DNA of 64,000 bases from Thermoplasmatales archaeon SW_10_69_26. GTDB taxonomy: Archaea; Thermoplasmatota; SW-10-69-26. The notes beneath the pieces are model-generated. The model was given only the letters and a program-made list of their open reading frames with translations, made no database searches and was not told where the DNA came from. Below, piece after piece: positions 15,607 through 27,329 of the stretch; within the stretch, counting starts at the first letter, position 1; every line of letters starts with the position of its first letter. The translations under genes were made by a program, and so were the position numbers. The stretch covers positions 14,205-78,204 of the forward strand of contig PXUB01000025.1 in NCBI GenBank assembly GCA_003009755.1, given 5' to 3'.

Positions 15607-16905
15607 TCACTTCGGCTGCTCGGTGCCCCACGTCTCGATGGCCTTGGCCGCCTCCTTGCTGTCCTGCGTGATGGCGTCCAGGCTGTCGCCGCGCATCGTT
15701 CCGTCGATTACGTCGCGCAGGGCTTTGGCGCCGGCGGTGGAGCCGTCGGGGTGGCCGTGGATGCCGCCGCCGAGCTGGATGACGACGTCGGGCCCGTAGA
15801 GGTCGATCATGTCCGGCACGATTCCGGGGTGCAGGCCGCCGCTGGCGACCGGGAACGCCGGCTTGATCGAGCCCCAGTCCTGGCCGAGCAGGTTGTCGCG
15901 GGGATCGGTGTGGGCCTCGCGGAGCTGGTCCATGTTGGCGACGACCTCGTTCTCGGGGCTGACGAGCTTGCCGATGACGGTGCCGGTGTGGAGCTGGTCG
16001 ACGCCGACGAGGCGGAGCAGCTTCGCCAGGCAGTACATCGCCATGCCGTGGTCCTCGATCTTGGTGAACATCGCGTGCATGGCGCGGTGGGCGTGGATCG
16101 CCAGGTCGAGGTCGCCGGTGGCTTCGCGGATGGTTTGCAGGCCGGCGAACCCGGTCGTGACGACGTCCACCATCGCGTACTCGAACCCGTGCTCGGCCAC
16201 GAGGCGGGCTCGCTCGATCGCCTCGTTCGTCTCGGCGGTCACGTTGATCAACGCGGATTTGGTCTCGCCGGTCTCGGCCTCGGCGCGTTCGCGTTGGCGA
16301 GCCAGGTGCTCGACGCGTTTCGCGAAGTTGTTGAACGACTGGCTGGTGAGGTTCTCGTCGTCCTTGATCAGATCGACCCCGCCGACCCAGGCCTCGTAGC
16401 CGCGCTCGGCGTGCTGTTCGGGGGTCCAGCCGAGCTTGGGTTTGGGGACGGTCGCCGTCGGCGGGCGCTCGGGGATCCCCAGCTCGTCCCGGATGCCCTC
16501 GATGCCGAGGTGGGGGCCGGGGTGAGCCTCGCGGATCTCCTGGGGGATGCGAAGATCCAGCAGGCGCAGGCGGGCGACGGCCTTCATGCCGAAGATGTTG
16601 CCGGCGACGCCGCTGAGGATCTGGGGGACGTTGGCGGCTTCCCACAGCTCGACGGGGTAGCGGACCTTGCAGGTGCCGGCCTCCTCGTCCCAGTCGTAGC
16701 ACATCGCCTTCAGGTCGGGCACGCGATCCGGCATCTGGGCCAGCGTCGTCCACGTGCCCACGCTGGATTCGCTGGCGATGCGGCCGAGCGCCTCGAGCGT
16801 GCTGGTGTCCTCGTCCGGTGTGAACGAGAACAGGGCCAACAGGTCCCCATCACGCGGCTCCGCGTCCCGGTCCACGAACTCGTCGTACCACTCGGTCCCG
16901 GCCAT
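15607..16905 (-). CDS. rbcL: Form III ribulose-1,5-bisphosphate carboxylase
   Basis: ESSVGTW, GNIFGMK, KPKLG, GVDLIKDDENL, HAHRAMH, LHTGT-VIGKL, VASGGLHPG, GGGIHGHP all present. Confidence 0.95.
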   Translation of the reverse strand: MAGTEWYDEFVDRDAEPRDGDLLALFSFTPDEDTSTLEALGRIASESSVGTWTTLAQMPDRVPDLKAMCYDWDEEAGTCKVRYPVELWEAANVPQILSGVAGNIFGMKAVARLRLLDLRIPQEIREAHPGPHLGIEGIRDELGIPERPPTATVPKPKLGWTPEQHAERGYEAWVGGVDLIKDDENLTSQSFNNFAKRVEHLARQRERAEAETGETKSALINVTAETNEAIERARLVAEHGFEYAMVDVVTTGFAGLQTIREATGDLDLAIHAHRAMHAMFTKIEDHGMAMYCLAKLLRLVGVDQLHTGTVIGKLVSPENEVVANMDQLREAHTDPRDNLLGQDWGSIKPAFPVASGGLHPGIVPDMIDLYGPDVVIQLGGGIHGHPDGSTAGAKALRDVIDGTMRGDSLDAITQDSKEAAKAIETWGTEQPK

Positions 16906-17087
16906 GCGTCCATCTACGGGGTTCGCGCCTTTTGCGAGTGTCGGTGGCGGAACGGGCCCCGACCCGGCCCGAGCCCTCGAAAGGAGCTCTCCAAGCCATC
17001 CCTCGGAGGGACAGAGCCCAGCTGCGCGAGAGCGCCAGGACCCTCGGGGACAGGTTTATCCGCTGGGGTATCCCAAAAGGGGAGCGT

Positions 17088-18749
17088 ATGGATTCTGGCG
17101 GTCTCACTCTTTCTTGTCAGTTCATCGACCTCGATCTCGGGGGGAACCAGGTCGTCCTCCACGCCGACGACGCCGAGGAGATCGGGGTTCACCCTCAGCA
17201 CCGCGTGCACGTCCGGTTCGGCGACGAGAGCTTGGTCGCCGTCGTCGACACGACCTCCTCGGTCGTGGAGCCCGGTCGGATCGGGGTCTTCCCCGGCGTG
17301 GCCGACGACCTGGGCCTGGAAGCGGATGCCCAGCTCGAGGTGCAGCCGGCCGAGAAGCCCGAAAGCGTCGAGTTCATCCGGAAGAAGATGAACGGGCGCG
17401 AGCTCGACACCGACGAGATCGCGCGCCTCGTCGAGGACATGGTGCAGGGCTCGTTGACCGACATCGAGCTGTCGGCCTACGTGACCAGCGTCGAGATCCA
17501 CGACATGAACATCCGGGAGACGACGGACCTGACCCGGTCGATGGTGGAGACCGGCGAGGTCATCGACTTCCACGACCCGATGATCTTCGACAAGCACAGC
17601 ATCGGGGGCGTGCCCGGGAACAAGATCACGCTGCTCGTCGTGCCGATCGCCGCCGCGGCCGGTCTGCCGATCCCGAAGACCAGCTCGCGCGCGATCACCG
17701 GCGCGGCTGGCACCAGCGACGTGATGGAGGTCTTCTGCGACGTCAAGCTCACCGCCGAGCGGATCCGTTCGATCACGAACGACGTCGGCGGCGTCATGGC
17801 CTGGGGCGGCGCGGTCAACCTCGCCCCGGCCGACGACATCATCATCCGCGTCGAGCACCCCCTCTCGCTGGATCCGCGCTCGCTTCTACTGGCCAGCGTG
17901 ATGGCGAAGAAGCGGGCGGTCGGCGCCAAGCACGTCGTCATCGACATCCCGATGGGCCCCGGCTCGAAGATCGCGACGATGGAGGAGGCCAAGAGCCTGG
18001 CGCGGGACTTCATCGCGCTCGGCGACCGGCTCGGCATGCAGGTCGAGTGCGCGATCACCTACGGTGGCCAGCCCGTCGGCAAAACCGTCGGCCCCGCCCT
18101 CGAGGCCAACGAGGCGCTGCGCGCGCTGCGCGGCGACCCCGACGTGCCCGAGAGCTTCACGAAGAAGGCCACCGCGATCGCGGGCATCCTGCTCGAGATG
18201 GGCGGCCTGGCCCGCCGCGGGCGGGGCCAACAGGAGGCCCAGCGCCTGCTCGAGGACGGCTCGGCGCTCGAGACGTTCTCCGAGATCGTGCAGGCTCAAG
18301 GCGGCCCCGAGCCCGAGCTGCAACCGGTGGGCGACCACACGTGGGAGCTCGTCGCCGACAAGGACGGCTACGTCGCCGGCGTCGGGAACCGCGACATCGT
18401 GGCGATCACGCGCAGCCTGGGGGCGCCCAAGGTCAAGGGCGCCGGCGTCGAGCTGCCGAAGAAGGAGGGCGACAGCGTCGAGGAGGGCGAGACGCTGCTC
18501 AAGCTGTACGCCGAGTCCGAGTACAAGCTCGAGGCCGCCCGCAAGCTCGCGACGTCGAAGGACCCGGTCACCGTCGAGGGTATGCTGTTGGAGCGCGTCC
18601 CCGAGTTCCGTGAGATCGGTGACGAGCCCAGCGGACCCGGGCCCGACCCGTCCGCGGACGGCAACGGCGGGATCCGTCAGGTAGCGCCGGAGGCCGACGA
18701 CGACAACGAAGCGGACACCGAGGCCGAGACGGCCGCCGACGGCAGCTGA
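17088..18749 (+). CDS. deoA: AMP phosphorylase (archaeal thymidine phosphorylase family)
   Basis: N-terminal barrel extension, DKHSIGGVPGNK, PKTSSRAITGAAGT, NLAPADD; divergent from RuBisCO. Confidence 0.93.
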   Translation: MDSGGLTLSCQFIDLDLGGNQVVLHADDAEEIGVHPQHRVHVRFGDESLVAVVDTTSSVVEPGRIGVFPGVADDLGLEADAQLEVQPAEKPESVEFIRKKMNGRELDTDEIARLVEDMVQGSLTDIELSAYVTSVEIHDMNIRETTDLTRSMVETGEVIDFHDPMIFDKHSIGGVPGNKITLLVVPIAAAAGLPIPKTSSRAITGAAGTSDVMEVFCDVKLTAERIRSITNDVGGVMAWGGAVNLAPADDIIIRVEHPLSLDPRSLLLASVMAKKRAVGAKHVVIDIPMGPGSKIATMEEAKSLARDFIALGDRLGMQVECAITYGGQPVGKTVGPALEANEALRALRGDPDVPESFTKKATAIAGILLEMGGLARRGRGQQEAQRLLEDGSALETFSEIVQAQGGPEPELQPVGDHTWELVADKDGYVAGVGNRDIVAITRSLGAPKVKGAGVELPKKEGDSVEEGETLLKLYAESEYKLEAARKLATSKDPVTVEGMLLERVPEFREIGDEPSGPGPDPSADGNGGIRQVAPEADDDNEADTEAETAADGS

Positions 18750-22705: not shown

Positions 22706-22944
22706 TCAGGGACCGAAGGGTCCGGGGGCATTGGGCCCCTGGTCCTCCGTCGGGGCGATCAGATCCAGCTGGTCGGGGTTGAAGGCGCGGTCGCCTCCCT
22801 CCCCCACAGCTCGACCAGCACGCGGTTGTCCCGGTCGAAGTCGAGCACGAGACCCTGCTCGTCCCACAGGGTCTCGTCGACCTCCGGGTTCGGGCGCACG
22901 CGGACGGCATCTCCGACGCTGAGACGCACGTGTATCTCACCCAC
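22706..22944 (-). CDS. Small SH3/KOW-like protein, apparent 1-nt indel in a G run
   Basis: LSVGDAVRV...GLVLDFD...VLVEL; adding one G at 22801-22805 gives WGEGGDRAFNPDQLDLI, a typical SH3-barrel ending. Confidence 0.5.
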
Positions 22945-23031
22945 AGATGTCTTGCATGGCCAACCCTGATGAAGGCTCGCTGGCCCGTCACATCGACGAC
23001 GTTCAGATGCGGGTCCGTTTGTGGGCCGTTC

Positions 23032-24231
23032 TCAGGCGCTTTCGCCGCCCATGCGGGCGTCCGCGTGGGCGAGCGCGACGTCCGCGGCCTGATACAGCAG
23101 GTGCAGATCGGGCTCGGGTCGGGCGCGGGCGTAGTCGGCGAACTCGCCGCGCAGCGCCAACAGGTCCGCGTGGCCCTCCTCGACCGTGTCGGGATCGGCC
23201 CCAGGGCCCAGGTGGCGAGCGATCGTGGCCCGCAGGCGTTCGATCTTGACGGCGGCGAAGCCAGGCGGCATCGGGTTGTCGACGAGCGGCACGAGCTCGG
23301 GCTCGCCGCCCTCGCCGGGGGGGCCCTGGAAGCCGCCGGCTTCGAGGCCGCGGATCGCGTTCTCGAGGTGGGCGAGCTCGGGCGCCTCGTGGAGGGGCGT
23401 GGCCAGCGGTTCGCCGCAGGCGGCCACACCTTCGACGTCGAAGAGGCCGCGGCCGTCGCCGCGGAGGCCGTCGAGGAACCGGCGGGGCAGCGCCTCGCCC
23501 TCCTCGGTCTCCGCTTCGCGCCAGGCCAGCCGGGAGAGGTCGCCGACGGGCAGCTCGGCACGCAGAGCCAACGCCAGACCGGAGGGCGGCGGCGGATCGG
23601 GATCGTCGCCGGTGGGCCACAGGTAGCCGGCACCGCCACCGGCGAGCACGGTCGTCTCGGCGCGGTGCGTGGTGCACTCCTCGCCGTCGACGAGCACGGC
23701 CCCGGAGACGCCCTCCTCGGCGTCGCCGATCAAGCGCACGGCGACGGTCGTCTGGTCCACGGCGGCGCCCTCGCGCTGCAAGCGATCGAGGATCGCCTCG
23801 CGCAGGTTGCGGGCCCAGGCTTCGTCGTTGGGGACGTCCAGCTCCTCGAGCCACCGTCGGACGCGACGGGCGCGGAAGCCGAACACCTGGGCCTCCTCGG
23901 GGGCGGGAACCTCGCTGCGCTTGATGAGCTCGCGGGCCTGGGGCACCGGGTCCTCGGGGATCGGCGGGACGTCGGGGACGTCCTGGGCGCCCTGGACGAG
24001 CAGGCGGGTGCGGGCGCCCGATCGCACGGCGGCGAGGGCGGCGGCTGCGCCGGCCAGGTCGCCACCGACGACGAGCACGGACCGGTCGCGGGGACGGTCG
24101 GCGTCGGTCTCCTCGTCCGAGCCGAGGGTCATGCCGCCCAGCATGCCGCCGGGGCCTTCGCGGTCGCCGACGATGGCGCCGACGGCGTCCCCAGACGAGG
24201 ACGGCGACGGGTGTTGATCGGGGTCCGCCAT
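23032..24231 (-). CDS. Degenerate L-aspartate oxidase (NadB)-like protein, probable pseudoenzyme
   Basis: VLVVGGDLAG, TVLAGGGAG, GLALALRA, DVEGVAACGE, PLH and a C-terminal helical domain are colinear with NadB; catalytic motifs and capping domain missing; 4 nt downstream of nadA. Confidence 0.75.
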   Translation of the reverse strand: MADPDQHPSPSSSGDAVGAIVGDREGPGGMLGGMTLGSDEETDADRPRDRSVLVVGGDLAGAAAALAAVRSGARTRLLVQGAQDVPDVPPIPEDPVPQARELIKRSEVPAPEEAQVFGFRARRVRRWLEELDVPNDEAWARNLREAILDRLQREGAAVDQTTVAVRLIGDAEEGVSGAVLVDGEECTTHRAETTVLAGGGAGYLWPTGDDPDPPPPSGLALALRAELPVGDLSRLAWREAETEEGEALPRRFLDGLRGDGRGLFDVEGVAACGEPLATPLHEAPELAHLENAIRGLEAGGFQGPPGEGGEPELVPLVDNPMPPGFAAVKIERLRATIARHLGPGADPDTVEEGHADLLALRGEFADYARARPEPDLHLLYQAADVALAHADARMGGESA

Positions 24232-24235
24232 GCGA

Positions 24236-25363
24236 TCACGACCCGATCTCGAGCATGCGGTCCAGCGCGACGCGGGACCACTCGCGGTCCTCCTCGTCGA
24301 CGCGGACGCGGTTGATCACGTTGCCCTTGACCAGCTCCTCGAGCACCCAGGTCACGTAGTTGGGGTCGATCTGGCGCATCGCGTTGCAATCCAGGCAGGC
24401 GTCGCCGCACAGCTGGATGACCTGCTTGGCCTCGGGCGTGTTGCGCTGCAGGTGCTCGATGAGGTGCTTCTCGGTGCCGATCGCGATCGTGGTGTCATCC
24501 TCGGCCTCGTGCACGAAGTCGATGATCTGGCCCGTCGAACCGGCGAAGTCGGCGGCGTCGACGACCTCGCGCGGGCACTCGGGGTGGACGATGATCTCGC
24601 CGTCCGGGTAGCGCTCGCGCATGCCGGCCACGTGCTCGAGGGAGAACCGGTCGTGGACCTGGCACATGCCATCCCACAGGATGAAGCGGGCGTCCTCGAC
24701 GGCCTCCCGAGAGGTGCCGCCGAACTCGGGGTGCCAGGGGTTCCACTTCACCCAGTCCTCGTCGCGGAAGCCCAGGTCGTAGGCGGTGTTGTGGCCGAGG
24801 TGCTTGTCCGGCATGAACAGGATCTTGCGCCCGGAGTCCAGCGCCCACTCGAAGATCTCGTCGGCGCTCGAGCTCGTGCAGATCGCCCCGTCCATCCGGC
24901 CGGTGAAGGCCTTGAGGTCGGCGTAGCTGTTCATGTAGGTGACGGGCACGATCTCGTCGGGGTCGAGCACCTGGGTGAGGTCGTCCCAGGCTTGGCGAAC
25001 CTGCACCATCTCGGCCATGCCGGCCATCGGGCAGGCGGCCTCGCGGCTCGGGATGATGACGTTGCGTTCGCCGCCGGTAAGGATGTCGGCCGTCTCGGCC
25101 ATGAACGTGACGCCGCAGAAGACGATGTTCTCGACCTCGGCGTCACGGGCGCGCTTGGAGAGGGAGAAGGAATCACCCGTGAAGTCCGCCAGCTCGTAGA
25201 TCTCCTCGTGCTGGTAGTTGTGCCCCAAGATGAGGGTCGAGTCGCCCAGGCAATCGCGGGCGCGCTCGATGCGCTCGGCTCGTTCCCCCGGGCCCAGATC
25301 CCGGTAGGGTTCCGGTAGCTGGGCGAAGTGGGCGTACCGGAACAGGTTCAGCGTCTCGGCCAT
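24236..25363 (-). CDS. nadA: Quinolinate synthase
   Basis: ILGHNYQ, FCGVTFMAE, ACPMA, YMNS, CTSS, PDKHLG, CQVH, HPEC, CNAM (three cluster Cys). Confidence 0.95.
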   Translation of the reverse strand: MAETLNLFRYAHFAQLPEPYRDLGPGERAERIERARDCLGDSTLILGHNYQHEEIYELADFTGDSFSLSKRARDAEVENIVFCGVTFMAETADILTGGERNVIIPSREAACPMAGMAEMVQVRQAWDDLTQVLDPDEIVPVTYMNSYADLKAFTGRMDGAICTSSSADEIFEWALDSGRKILFMPDKHLGHNTAYDLGFRDEDWVKWNPWHPEFGGTSREAVEDARFILWDGMCQVHDRFSLEHVAGMRERYPDGEIIVHPECPREVVDAADFAGSTGQIIDFVHEAEDDTTIAIGTEKHLIEHLQRNTPEAKQVIQLCGDACLDCNAMRQIDPNYVTWVLEELVKGNVINRVRVDEEDREWSRVALDRMLEIGS

Positions 25364-25437
25364 CGCATGGAGCCAGCCGACCGGAGCCTAAAGGCGTTGG
25401 GTTGGGGGAAATCCGTTCGCCCTCGGGAGCGCTGGCT

Positions 25438-25492
25438 CGAAGAATTTTCGCTCGCGCCCGCGACCACGAAGCTGCCTGCGGTGGCAAGCTTC
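25438..25492. promoter_or_regulatory. Candidate operator sites in the nadA/sod divergent promoter region
   Basis: Imperfect palindrome CGAAGAATTTTCG (25438-25450) and inverted repeat GAAGCTGCC...GGCAAGCTTC (25468-25492). Confidence 0.3.
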
Positions 25493-25550
25493 CCCACCCC
25501 GAGCGAACATCTATAACGTCTGTTGCCTTGCCCTATACGAGGCGGTCGAC

Positions 25551-26153
25551 ATGACTGACTACACGCTGGACGAGCTTCCCTACGACTACGACGCGCTGGA
25601 GCCCCACATCAGCGAGCAGGTGCTCAAGTGGCACCACGACCGACACCACCAGGGCTACGTTGACGGGTGGAACAGCGCCGAGGAGACGCTCGAGGAGAAC
25701 CGCGAGTCCGGCGACTTCTCTTCGAGCGGGTCCGCCCTCCGCAACGTGACCCACAACGGGTGCGGTCACATCCTGCACGCGCTGTTCTGGCACAACATGA
25801 GCCCCACCGGCGGCGACGAGCCCACCGGCGCGATCGCCGACCGCATCGAGGCGGACTTCGGCAGCTACGAGGCCTGGGAAGGTGAGTTCCGCGCCGCAGC
25901 CAGCGAGGCCTCCGGCTGGGCGCTCCTCGTCTACGACAGCTTCTCCAACCAGCTCCGCAACGTGGTCGTCGACAAGCACGACCAAGGCGCGCTCTGGGGC
26001 TCGCACCCGATCCTCGCCTTGGACGTGTGGGAGCACTCCTACTACCACGACTACGGCCCCGACCGCGGCGACTTCGTCGACGCGTTCTTCAACGTCGTCG
26101 ACTGGGAGGAGCCCCGCTCGCGGTACAAGCAGGCCGTCTCCCTGTTCGAGTAA
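25551..26153 (+). CDS. sod: Fe/Mn superoxide dismutase
   Basis: LPYDYDALEPHIS, WHHDRHH, HILHALFW, DVWEHSYY. Confidence 0.97.
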   Translation: MTDYTLDELPYDYDALEPHISEQVLKWHHDRHHQGYVDGWNSAEETLEENRESGDFSSSGSALRNVTHNGCGHILHALFWHNMSPTGGDEPTGAIADRIEADFGSYEAWEGEFRAAASEASGWALLVYDSFSNQLRNVVVDKHDQGALWGSHPILALDVWEHSYYHDYGPDRGDFVDAFFNVVDWEEPRSRYKQAVSLFE

Positions 26154-26240: not shown

Positions 26241-27263
26241 TTAGCCGCGCTCGCCGGCGTTGAGCCCGGCGCGCTCGGCGACGTCGTACACCTCGGTGCG
26301 GGCATCGCGCAGCGAGGCGCGCTTGACGACGTAGCCCAGCTCGGTCAGCTTGCCGAGGCTCGATCGCACGGTGCGGGACGTGAGCCCGGACTGGCGAGCG
26401 ATCTCGGAGGGCGTCATCGGGCCCTCGTACTCCAACAGCTTGTAGATGAACCGGGCCGAGGGCGGGGCATCGGCCAGCTCGCTGCCGATCTCGCGTTTCA
26501 GCCGGACGCGGCCGAGCAGGTGGCCGTGCTCGCGCTCGGACAACCGCACCAGCGTCAGCCGGCGGCCGGTGCCCTTGATCGTGACGTCCTCGTCGATCGA
26601 GACCCGGCGGTGACCGTCGACGACGAGCTCGACGCCGGAGCCGCTCTCGGGGTTGGCCAGCGTGATCATGGAGGCGCTGGGCGACACGATCGGGGGATGG
26701 TCCTCCTCGCTGCAGACGGGCACGACGGTCAACACGTCGGCGGCGGACAGGACCGCGGGTCCGCCGGCAGACAACGCGTAGGCGGTCGACCCGGTCGGGG
26801 TGCACACGATCGTGCCGTCGCCGCGGTCGTGCCACAGCAGCTCGCCGTCGACCTTGACGTCGACGTCGAGGAACGTGCCGTTCTGCTGGGGCAACACGGC
26901 GGCCTCGTTGAGCGCCAGCCAGCGCTCGTCGCCGACCTCGCACTCCATGCGCAGCGTCTGCGTGCGCCCCGATCGACCCTCGGCCAGGGCTCGGGCGACC
27001 TCCTCGGCCTCGCCGGCCTGGGCCTCGGCGAGCACGCCCAGGCCCTCGTTGGACAAGAGCAGGACCGGCGGCGGGTCGGGCAGCTCGGCCAACCGCGACA
27101 GGAAGAATCGGGTCTCGCCGACGAGCGTCAGCACGTCGGTCTCGGCGTCGACGGCATCGGTGACGGTCAGCTCGTGCTCGGCGAACGCCTCCCGCACCTG
27201 GCCGCCGTCCTCGCGGGCTCGCTCGTGGGCCTCGACCGCGACGCGCACGTTCCCCGGGCACAT
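26241..27263 (-). CDS. NAD kinase-like domain fused to C-terminal winged-helix HTH
   Basis: ALNEA and GDGTIVCTPTGSTAYALSAGGP retained; GGDG replaced by VGETR; C-terminal PPSARFIYKLLEYEGPMTPSEIARQSGLTSRTVRSSLGKL wHTH. Confidence 0.85.
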   Translation of the reverse strand: MCPGNVRVAVEAHERAREDGGQVREAFAEHELTVTDAVDAETDVLTLVGETRFFLSRLAELPDPPPVLLLSNEGLGVLAEAQAGEAEEVARALAEGRSGRTQTLRMECEVGDERWLALNEAAVLPQQNGTFLDVDVKVDGELLWHDRGDGTIVCTPTGSTAYALSAGGPAVLSAADVLTVVPVCSEEDHPPIVSPSASMITLANPESGSGVELVVDGHRRVSIDEDVTIKGTGRRLTLVRLSEREHGHLLGRVRLKREIGSELADAPPSARFIYKLLEYEGPMTPSEIARQSGLTSRTVRSSLGKLTELGYVVKRASLRDARTEVYDVAERAGLNAGERG

Positions 27264-27329
27264 CGTCGGCCCCCTTGAGGCCTGCGCCCGCGGGCGAACG
27301 GTCAAGCCGCCGAAGCCGCGTGAGCCCAC

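Follow-up and report, generated by a model that had tools for sequence, protein, structure and literature searches.

Why would a genome retain, directly beside the quinolinate synthase gene nadA, a relative of the L-aspartate oxidase NadB that has lost its catalytic apparatus? This question is raised by a locus of Thermoplasmatales archaeon SW_10_69_26, lying within a 64,000-nt stretch of contig PXUB01000025.1 (assembly GCA_003009755.1, positions 14,205 to 78,204 of the forward strand) that was analysed as a whole and is called the window below. A preliminary description made from the letters of the window had recognised the NadB ancestry of the gene and proposed that selection keeps it as a scaffold, allosteric partner or protector of NadA. 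We find that the gene descends from nadB, lacks the catalytic apparatus, is under selection and is linked to nadA, in a 95%-complete assembly that contains NadX and in which no other NadB was found. With moderate confidence, we favor the reading that NadX took over catalysis, the remnant surviving as a NadA partner without catalytic activity. The locus is laid out as follows, in window coordinates:

23032..24231, minus strand: coding sequence of the reduced NadB derivative (P0001), 399 amino acids (aa), with ATG at 24231 and TGA at 23034-23032
24232..24235, minus strand: spacer of 4 nt, read from the sequence, between the nadA stop codon (TGA, 24238-24236) and the start codon (ATG) of the remnant
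24236..25363, minus strand: nadA, encoding a long-type quinolinate synthase (P0002) of 375 aa, Pfam NadA match at 4.5e-94

Loss of catalytic motifs in a retained fold

To follow the NadB motifs, we used an alignment of E. coli NadB (L018:2421-4043), P0001, four members of its family, eight shorter relatives and four full-length NadBs. All seven differences listed in the preliminary description recur in it. GSGAAG (E. coli NadB residues 15-20) reads GGDLAG, QFHPT (242-246) reads AWRE, HYTCGG (351-356) reads RRFLDG and LHGANR (381-386) reads LHEAPE. AQGG (49-52) falls inside a deletion, as does REGGHS (120-125, with E121), described earlier as an absent EGGH..RR loop. The capping domain is deleted as claimed, the stretch from QFHPT to HYTCGG being exchanged for ~15 residues. 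Seven positions, E121, H244, T259, R290, H351, R386 and S389, are missing or replaced in all five family representatives and kept in all four full-length NadBs aligned (T259 is Ser in two of these). R386 is a NadB active-site residue, and PDB entry 1knp is titled an R386L mutant. The other six are given as active-site residues in PMC10249383.

The motifs for flavin adenine dinucleotide (FAD) have fared no better across the remnant family: the first reads GG[DTSC]LAG, AQGG is deleted, ATGG has become AGGG, GDG has become P-S/V/T-G, AIGE has become ACGE/Q, and SNSLLE is shortened. In the alignment the remnant falls outside the FAD-motif definition of NadB, and it has probably lost flavin binding. 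Its scores on curated profiles are all below the cut-offs: 27.8 bits on TIGR00551 (nadB; cut-off 452.75), 36.4 bits on NF005867 (L-aspartate oxidase, the best NCBIfam match; cut-off 639) and 16.0 bits on PF00890 (FAD_binding_2; gathering score 20.4), the last over residues 141-203 only. A precomputed PF00890 match exists for 8/20 other orthologue clusters. The known mechanism of aspartate oxidase is not available to the remnant.

The preliminary description also held that the FAD-domain strands and C-terminal helices are retained, and structure prediction with superposition on NadB bears this out. An AlphaFold2 (AF2) model from a 21-sequence alignment reached a predicted local distance difference test score (pLDDT) of 84.2 and a predicted template modeling score (pTM) of 0.83, with pLDDT below 50 only at residues 7-46 and 397-399. 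Residues 49-399 superpose on E. coli NadB (1knp, covering chain residues 8-510) with Z 31.4 and a root-mean-square deviation of 3.3 Å over 345 residues, at 22% identity. SdhA/FrdA/NadB flavoproteins give Z 30-32.6 (6c12_A, 32.6). Foldseek returned the same families, with template modeling (TM) scores by query of 0.62-0.69 for the SdhA/FrdA superfamily, and the nearest structures in the ESM Atlas are L-aspartate oxidase clusters (TM 0.86 by query). The model contains the fold of both the FAD-binding and the C-terminal helical domain of NadB. The remnant thus lies outside every sequence-level definition of NadB that we applied, yet keeps the NadB fold and gene position.

Selection on the remnant and the supply of iminoaspartate

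An open frame says little at this locus. The earlier remark that 399 codons pass without a stop is correct for the ORF (open reading frame) itself, but such a frame is not beyond chance: the region is 72-75% G+C, so open frames are cheap, the probability of meeting no stop in 399 codons is ~0.06 under position-specific composition, and the six frames of the window hold 73 stop-free stretches of at least 350 codons. That this is a real, selected gene is shown instead by its G+C at third codon positions (GC3, 0.90), its orthologues and its conservation pattern. Alternative starts at M30 or M34 are possible, and the conclusions are unaffected by the choice. An antisense ORF at 22930-24315 (plus strand, 461 codons) covers the whole gene and is one of these stretches; it was rejected as a gene candidate, having no Pfam match, a first-position G+C of 0.87 and a GC3 of 0.80, and is the kind of shadow frame that high-GC genes typically produce.

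The claim that the gene is kept by selection stands. The 21 orthologues (57-99% identity, 280-405 aa, E ≤ 6e-96; the 280-aa one is a fragment) align with 89 invariant columns (n = 21), and the gene occurs in all six genomes of its family. One source calls at least two of the orthologues ‘aspartate oxidase’, and one orthologue carries the label Thermoplasmatota archaeon. The ratio of nonsynonymous to synonymous divergence (dN/dS), a check proposed at the outset and run here by the Nei-Gojobori method on DNA from the six family genomes, is well below 1: it is 0.13-0.48 for the remnant (15 pairs), close to the 0.16-0.36 of NadA in the same genomes (10 pairs), values that are rough because a GC3 of ~0.9 compresses dS and the proportion of synonymous differences (pS, 0.44-0.67) is near saturation. 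Amino-acid identity in these genomes is 58-83% for the remnant and 75-85% for NadA, and in matched genome pairs the remnant has a dN ~1.7-fold that of NadA. Being homologous to an enzyme, stripped of its catalytic residues and under purifying selection, the remnant is a pseudoenzyme.

Along the chain, the parts that the argument requires are these, all on the minus strand:

24094..24231, minus strand: residues 1-46, low-complexity N-terminal extension, predicted to be disordered (pLDDT below 50 for 7-46)
23986..24093, minus strand: residues 47-82, Rossmann beta-alpha-beta remnant with the degenerate motif GG[D/T/S/C]LAG
23839..23892, minus strand: residues 114-131, Arg-rich helix FRARRVRRWLEEL, the most conserved block, modeled as a helix at 114-130
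23482..23526, minus strand: residues 236-250, stump of the capping-domain deletion, from alignment with E. coli and same-class NadB
23257..23331, minus strand: residues 301-325, conserved linker PELVPLVDNPMPPGF with the motif D-x-P-[LM]-P-x-G-F
23035..23256, minus strand: residues 326-399, C-terminal helical domain with the motif LRGEFADYARAR; modeled helices 325-340, 347-370 and 374-395

Conservation is uneven along these parts, as in a working protein. Mean pairwise identity peaks in the Arg-rich helix (85%, with 9/18 columns invariant), followed by the Rossmann segment (75%, 13/36) and the linker (74%, 11/25; lower pLDDT, 67-75), and falls to 46% in the loop at 83-113. The stump is the least conserved ordered block (39%, 1/15). 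The N-terminal extension, with 36% mean identity and 0/46 invariant columns, is missing from most orthologues, and those of 342-354 aa begin just before the Rossmann strand. Within the Rossmann segment, every row covering the site has D, T, S or C in place of the middle Gly of GxGxxG. The linker motif is common to the remnant, to ~255-aa homologues from the same class (see below) and to the full NadBs of the clade. The C-terminal domain aligns with the ~255-aa forms at an hhalign probability of 99.9, and residues 235-392 of the remnant share 35% identity with the full-length NadB P0029 of the same class.

If the remnant makes no iminoaspartate, the imine has to come from elsewhere, as the preliminary description had argued, and the genome supports this: it has no other NadB and it carries a NadX-like L-aspartate dehydrogenase beside nadC. 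A search with the nadB model matched only the remnant and one 629-aa protein. Asp_DH_C has a single match in the genome (90.6 bits; cut-off 27), in a 297-aa ORF located ~1 kb from nadC (253.5 bits; cut-off 198.4):

G000:C15:16191-17084 (= L004:901-1794), plus strand: NadX-like gene
G000:C15:14397-15182, minus strand: nadC

L-aspartate dehydrogenases of solved structure match the ORF from end to end (2dc1, 5.8e-33; 1j5p, 8.1e-25). In this genome its neighbor is nadC and not nadA. Because the NadX-like protein of the family scores below the NCBIfam equivalog cut-offs (190.7 against 267, and 179.2 against 206.55), we call it NadX-like and treat its dehydrogenase activity as predicted. It is divergent, with Asp_DH_C scores of ~89-93 bits in 6/6 family genomes compared with 116-133 bits in 27/28 other genomes with a match. 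NadX matches above the cut-off occur in all 14 genomes of the class that have a reduced NadB. None was found in G012 (89% complete), which has a full NadB, or in G025 and G026, two genomes of the wider phylum sample whose NadB scores above the curated cut-off. Replacement of NadB by an aspartate dehydrogenase in Thermotogales is described in PMC2330245 and PMC4699246.

Two sets of longer proteins came up as possible NadBs and were set aside. The 629-aa ORF, on contig C4, was considered as a hidden NadB and rejected, being SdhA (NF005866, 938.7 bits; cut-off 819). Proteins of 569 and 586 aa in G015 and G018, with TIGR00551 matches of ~380 bits, were also rejected as NadB and are SdhA.

Reduced relatives and linkage to nadA

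Within a sample of 21 genomes of the class, including this one, the reduced NadB takes two forms. The long form (~345-400 aa) is present in 6/6 genomes of the source organism's family (E ≤ 1e-176). Smaller homologues of 255-290 aa, here called the ~255-aa forms, occur in eight genomes of two sister families (profile E 1e-10 to 3e-19), and a ninth genome (G020) has a fragment at a contig end, near nadA. Smaller reduced NadB proteins are P0027, P0028, P0031-P0033, P0035-P0037 and P0040, and loci encoding smaller reduced NadBs of 243-325 aa are:

L012:1330-2121: smaller reduced NadB
L014:1294-2070: smaller reduced NadB
L015:1486-2340, minus strand: smaller reduced NadB
L017:1273-2013: smaller reduced NadB
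L016:1483-2250, minus strand: smaller reduced NadB

Alignments of the two forms are homologous (hhalign probability 99.9, E 7.8e-33, 262 columns), and a model of the ~255-aa form (pLDDT 89, pTM 0.89) has E. coli NadB as its best match (Z 26.2, 254/255 residues). Like the long form, the ~255-aa forms are without the capping domain and the catalytic residues. Unlike it, they have GxGxxG, ATGG and GDG intact, as well as the acidic residue that follows strand 2; missing from them are the helical region at 83-155, with its Arg-rich helix, and the helix that comes after ACGE. The two are alternative reductions, neither of them derivable from the other.

A full-length, motif-complete NadB lies directly after nadA in one family of the class (G012). 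TIGR00551 is its best-scoring family (423.7 bits), and this protein, P0029, shows 35% identity with the remnant in a 170-residue alignment that bridges the deletion. Full-length NadBs at this position in close relatives, which would have marked this copy as decaying, are absent; this more distant family of the class is the only one with a full-length protein. We also placed 52 rows (9 long reduced forms, 9 ~255-aa forms and 34 full-length matches of 470-620 aa from P0026-P0075) in a quick IQ-TREE search without bootstraps. It came with a flag for heterogeneous composition, and both reduced groups sit on long branches, so that mutual attraction of these branches is possible. The two groups share the same side of a branch with a Shimodaira-Hasegawa-like approximate likelihood-ratio (SH-aLRT) value of 98, and their nearest full-length relatives in the tree are P0026, P0029 and P0030. 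The stem branch of the long form measures 1.67 changes per column, and the branches within that group are short.

Outside the class, the reduced form was not found in 20 genomes of the phylum, where two weak partial matches appeared (8e-5 and 1.5e-4). A search of 1.84 billion cluster representatives gave only 3 at E ≤ 1e-30, followed by full NadBs and ~255-aa forms, so the long form is a narrow family. A contig scan for the ~255-aa form with a single peptide pattern gave 6 loci, a count that says little about its true range. One locus with this form, L023, belongs to a metagenome-assembled genome labeled Proteobacteria bacterium and has the order nadA, unknown gene, ferritin-like gene, ~255-aa NadB at 71% G+C, as in genus g5; its label or binning looks wrong.

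The remnant is genomically linked to nadA, by the 4-nt spacer here and by synteny in the family. The gap between the NadA and remnant matches is ~20-25 nt in 4/5 family genomes with both genes on one contig and ~475 nt in the fifth (G003); in G005 the two lie on different contigs. The ~255-aa forms abut nadA in four genomes (G008, G010, G011 and G018), and in three genomes of genus g5 they are on the same strand and at most ~2.5 kb away. At the g5 locus L016 (G019), two genes stand between nadA and the ~255-aa form, one of them ferritin-like, and a ferritin-like gene also lies between the two in the look-alike loci L023 and L026:

L016:2369-2968, minus strand: ferritin-like gene
L023:2762-3361: ferritin-like gene
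L026:1969-2568: ferritin-like gene

At least three families retain the nadA linkage, several genomes also show linkage to NadX, and the smaller reduced forms mostly stand straight after nadA, often with NadX close by. In the phylum, NadA comes in two types. A short type (mostly 299-344-aa frames, 370-407 bits on PF02445) is often found beside NadX, and a long type (mostly 375-445-aa frames, 284-324 bits) is found with full or reduced NadB. P0002 scores 304.8 bits on TIGR00550, above the cut-off of 262.9. The connection between NadA type and NadB is not absolute, since a partial NadB-like match stands beside a short-type NadA in G031.

A Fe/Mn superoxide dismutase gene (25551-26153, plus strand) is divergent from nadA, and the oxidative-stress genes found beside nadA, superoxide dismutase and ferritin-like, would fit the oxygen sensitivity of the NadA cluster. 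One gene upstream of nadA and on the same strand, 26241-27329 (minus) encodes a 362-aa protein with an NAD-kinase C-terminal domain (PF20143, 5.2e-22) and a C-terminal winged helix-turn-helix. It scores far below the NAD kinase equivalog cut-off (88.6 against 326) and may be a regulator linked to nicotinamide adenine dinucleotide (NAD). Neighboring genes are archaeal in character, among them an archaeosine tRNA-guanine transglycosylase and a stomatin/NfeD pair. A form III ribulose-bisphosphate carboxylase (RuBisCO) large subunit (15607-17055, minus strand) and an AMP phosphorylase-like gene (16824-18749, plus strand) stand back to back, an archaeal pair for adenosine monophosphate (AMP) salvage. 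For window positions 22900-25500, three public runs from two studies contain at least half of the sampled words, and all three are labeled halite metagenome; no RNA run was listed for these positions. The best-matching run is possibly the source sample itself, and the halite label fits the very acidic proteins here; the isoelectric point (pI) is 4.5 for both NadA and the remnant. The remnant has 35 Arg and 2 Lys and NadA 27 Arg and 8 Lys, with Arg likewise exceeding Lys in other proteins checked.

Possible roles of the remnant beside NadA

Several known systems can be compared with the remnant. Like NadB (EC 1.4.3.16; 1CHU, 1KNP), it has an FAD-domain core and a C-terminal helical domain and is encoded directly after nadA, and its closest sequence relatives are archaeal NadBs; unlike NadB, it is without the capping domain, AQGG, the E121 loop and the seven active-site residues, and its GxGxxG is degenerate. 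With the SdhA/FrdA superfamily (Pfam FAD_binding_2) it shares the overall fold of the retained parts, but it scores below the Pfam gathering threshold and has neither the capping domain nor the C-terminal flavoprotein extension, and the SdhA of this genome is a separate protein of 629 aa. Displacement of NadB by NadX (NadB-II), as in Thermotoga and many archaea, resembles the situation here in that the genome has a NadX-like enzyme beside nadC for iminoaspartate. The described cases, however, are simply without NadB, whereas here a gutted NadB is kept beside nadA along with NadX. The ~255-aa sister forms are homologous, equally stripped of capping domain and catalytic residues, nadA-linked and co-occurring with NadX, and differ in their intact GxGxxG, acidic residue after strand 2 and GDG and in the loss of the 83-155 region. 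Pseudoenzymes kept as partners of active enzymes are a general concept. The remnant matches it as an enzyme homologue that has lost its catalytic residues, is under purifying selection and is genetically tied to its pathway; its own role as a partner is putative. A literature search, mostly of what is available outside subscription journals, found no description of a dead or truncated NadB beside NadA.

How such a protein might have arisen can be outlined. The ancestor would have had a nadA-nadB pair, as still seen in one family of the same class, and this pair, with a long-type NadA, would have come to coexist with NadX, the dehydrogenase then taking over imine production. In the lineages with NadX, NadB may have shed the capping domain, the residues for substrate binding and catalysis, and the majority of its flavin contacts, while the FAD-domain core and the C-terminal helical domain would have been kept by purifying selection and translationally coupled to nadA. 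At present NadX would make the iminoaspartate and NadA would condense it with dihydroxyacetone phosphate, with the catalytically inert remnant keeping the place of NadB in the quinolinate synthase complex. The remnant might dock on the long-type NadA through the Arg-rich helix, the D-x-P-[LM]-P-x-G-F linker and the C-terminal helices; once docked, it could stabilize or protect NadA and possibly position NadX for hand-over of the unstable imine.

The remnant may physically bind NadA or NadX; synteny and co-occurrence are the evidence that bears on this. The proposal of a scaffold, allosteric partner or protector of NadA fits the tight and conserved nadA linkage and the co-occurrence with NadX. 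That the core has been kept for long in at least three families after loss of the active site speaks for a second function, linked to nadA and not catalytic. According to a review (PMC4699246), NadB and NadA associate in a reversible complex; this complex, the displacement of NadB elsewhere (PMC2330245) and the long retention of the core are why we favor a non-catalytic NadA partner that possibly positions NadX.

Several observations weigh against this preference. Four genomes of the class (G007, G009, G015 and G017) have a short NadA (371-391 bits) adjoining NadX and no remnant, so NadX and NadA evidently work without one. The two intervening genes in g5 and the 475-nt gap in G003 mean that coupling to nadA is not universal. 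No fusion to NadA was found in a search for relatives of 700-2000 aa, which is weak evidence. The sub-cut-off scores of the NadX-like protein, the roughness of the dN/dS values and the weaknesses of the tree belong here too. Finally, the Rossmann segment is among the best-conserved parts, a pattern that a purely structural role need not require, and a ligand may therefore still bind.

This last point leads to the idea of a regulatory, ligand-sensing subunit, in which the Rossmann core would bind an adenine nucleotide (NAD, ADP-ribose, ADP or the ADP part of FAD) and tune NadA or NadX to the NAD pool, so that only the feedback-sensing side of NadB is preserved. In E. coli, NAD inhibits NadB by competition with FAD. 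Besides the conservation of residues 47-82, the near-invariance of G56, G57, L59 and G61 speaks for sensing, as do the survival of ATGG as AGGG and of AIGE as ACGE/Q, and the intact nucleotide-site motifs of the ~255-aa relatives. We nevertheless consider sensing rather unlikely, given a middle Gly of GxGxxG that is D, T, S or C in every covering row, the deletion of AQGG, the loss of the GDG Asp and the shortened SNSLLE element. Somewhat less probable again is a new catalytic or substrate-handling activity that dispenses with the capping domain, for instance one acting on a dicarboxylate (iminoaspartate, oxaloacetate or quinolinate) at a new Arg-rich site. Invariant arginines are abundant (R120, R122, R123, R126, R150, R153, R166, R224, R251, R294, R332, R334, R361, R369, R371 and R393) in what is a pI 4.5 protein with hardly any Lys, and a long stem branch with constraint restored afterwards is in keeping with altered function. 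The excess of Arg over Lys is, however, also found in NadA and the rest of the proteins checked, no catalytic motif of a known kind was recognized, the Pfam and NCBIfam matches are far below their cut-offs, and the ~255-aa sister forms are without helix 114-131, which makes a shared new active site unlikely.

A slowly decaying, functionless nadB relic, open only because stops are rare at high GC, would account for the uninformative openness of the frame and for a dN ~1.7 times that of NadA. It is hard to reconcile with orthologues down to 57% identity that still share 89 invariant columns, with the dN/dS range, the strongly uneven conservation along the chain and the confident, compact AF2 fold, or with the same form in every family genome and related reduced forms in eight more genomes of the class. 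Decay is already largely refuted by this conservation, and we regard it as very improbable. Slightly more improbable still is a role outside NAD synthesis, such as assembly or partnering of another iron-sulfur protein or flavoprotein, with the nadA linkage merely historical. The fold does match SdhA/FrdA as well as NadB (6c12_A, Z 32.6), a ferritin-like gene separates nadA from the ~255-aa form in g5, and a superoxide dismutase gene adjoins nadA here; against such a role, the linkage to nadA holds across at least three families and that to NadX in several genomes, and both sequence and tree place the remnant with NadB rather than with SdhA.

Within the reading of a non-catalytic NadA partner, we tentatively put forward a more specific version, which we think possible though well short of probable. 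The reduced NadBs may be obligate adaptors of a three-protein quinolinate synthase metabolon, the C-terminal domain and linker forming a NadA-docking module and NadX being recruited, so that the imine would pass directly to a long-type NadA unable to work, or to survive oxygen, alone.

To our knowledge, neither the NadA-NadB interface nor the role of the C-terminal helical domain of NadB has been defined so far. In this archaeal lineage, which would make the imine with NadX, the catalytic parts of NadB have been removed and a conserved core has been kept beside nadA. For annotation, at least two orthologues bear the name ‘aspartate oxidase’, and pathway reconstructions guided by such names would assign the opening step of NAD synthesis to the wrong enzyme. 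If the core binds NadA, these proteins would point to the interface and offer a clean reagent for studying substrate channeling and protection of the oxygen-labile NadA cluster. They would amount to a natural dissection of the structural role of NadB and a way to test hand-over of an unstable intermediate from NadB or NadX to NadA. Should the adaptor proposal be true, the long-suspected structural role of NadB would have been separated from its catalytic one.

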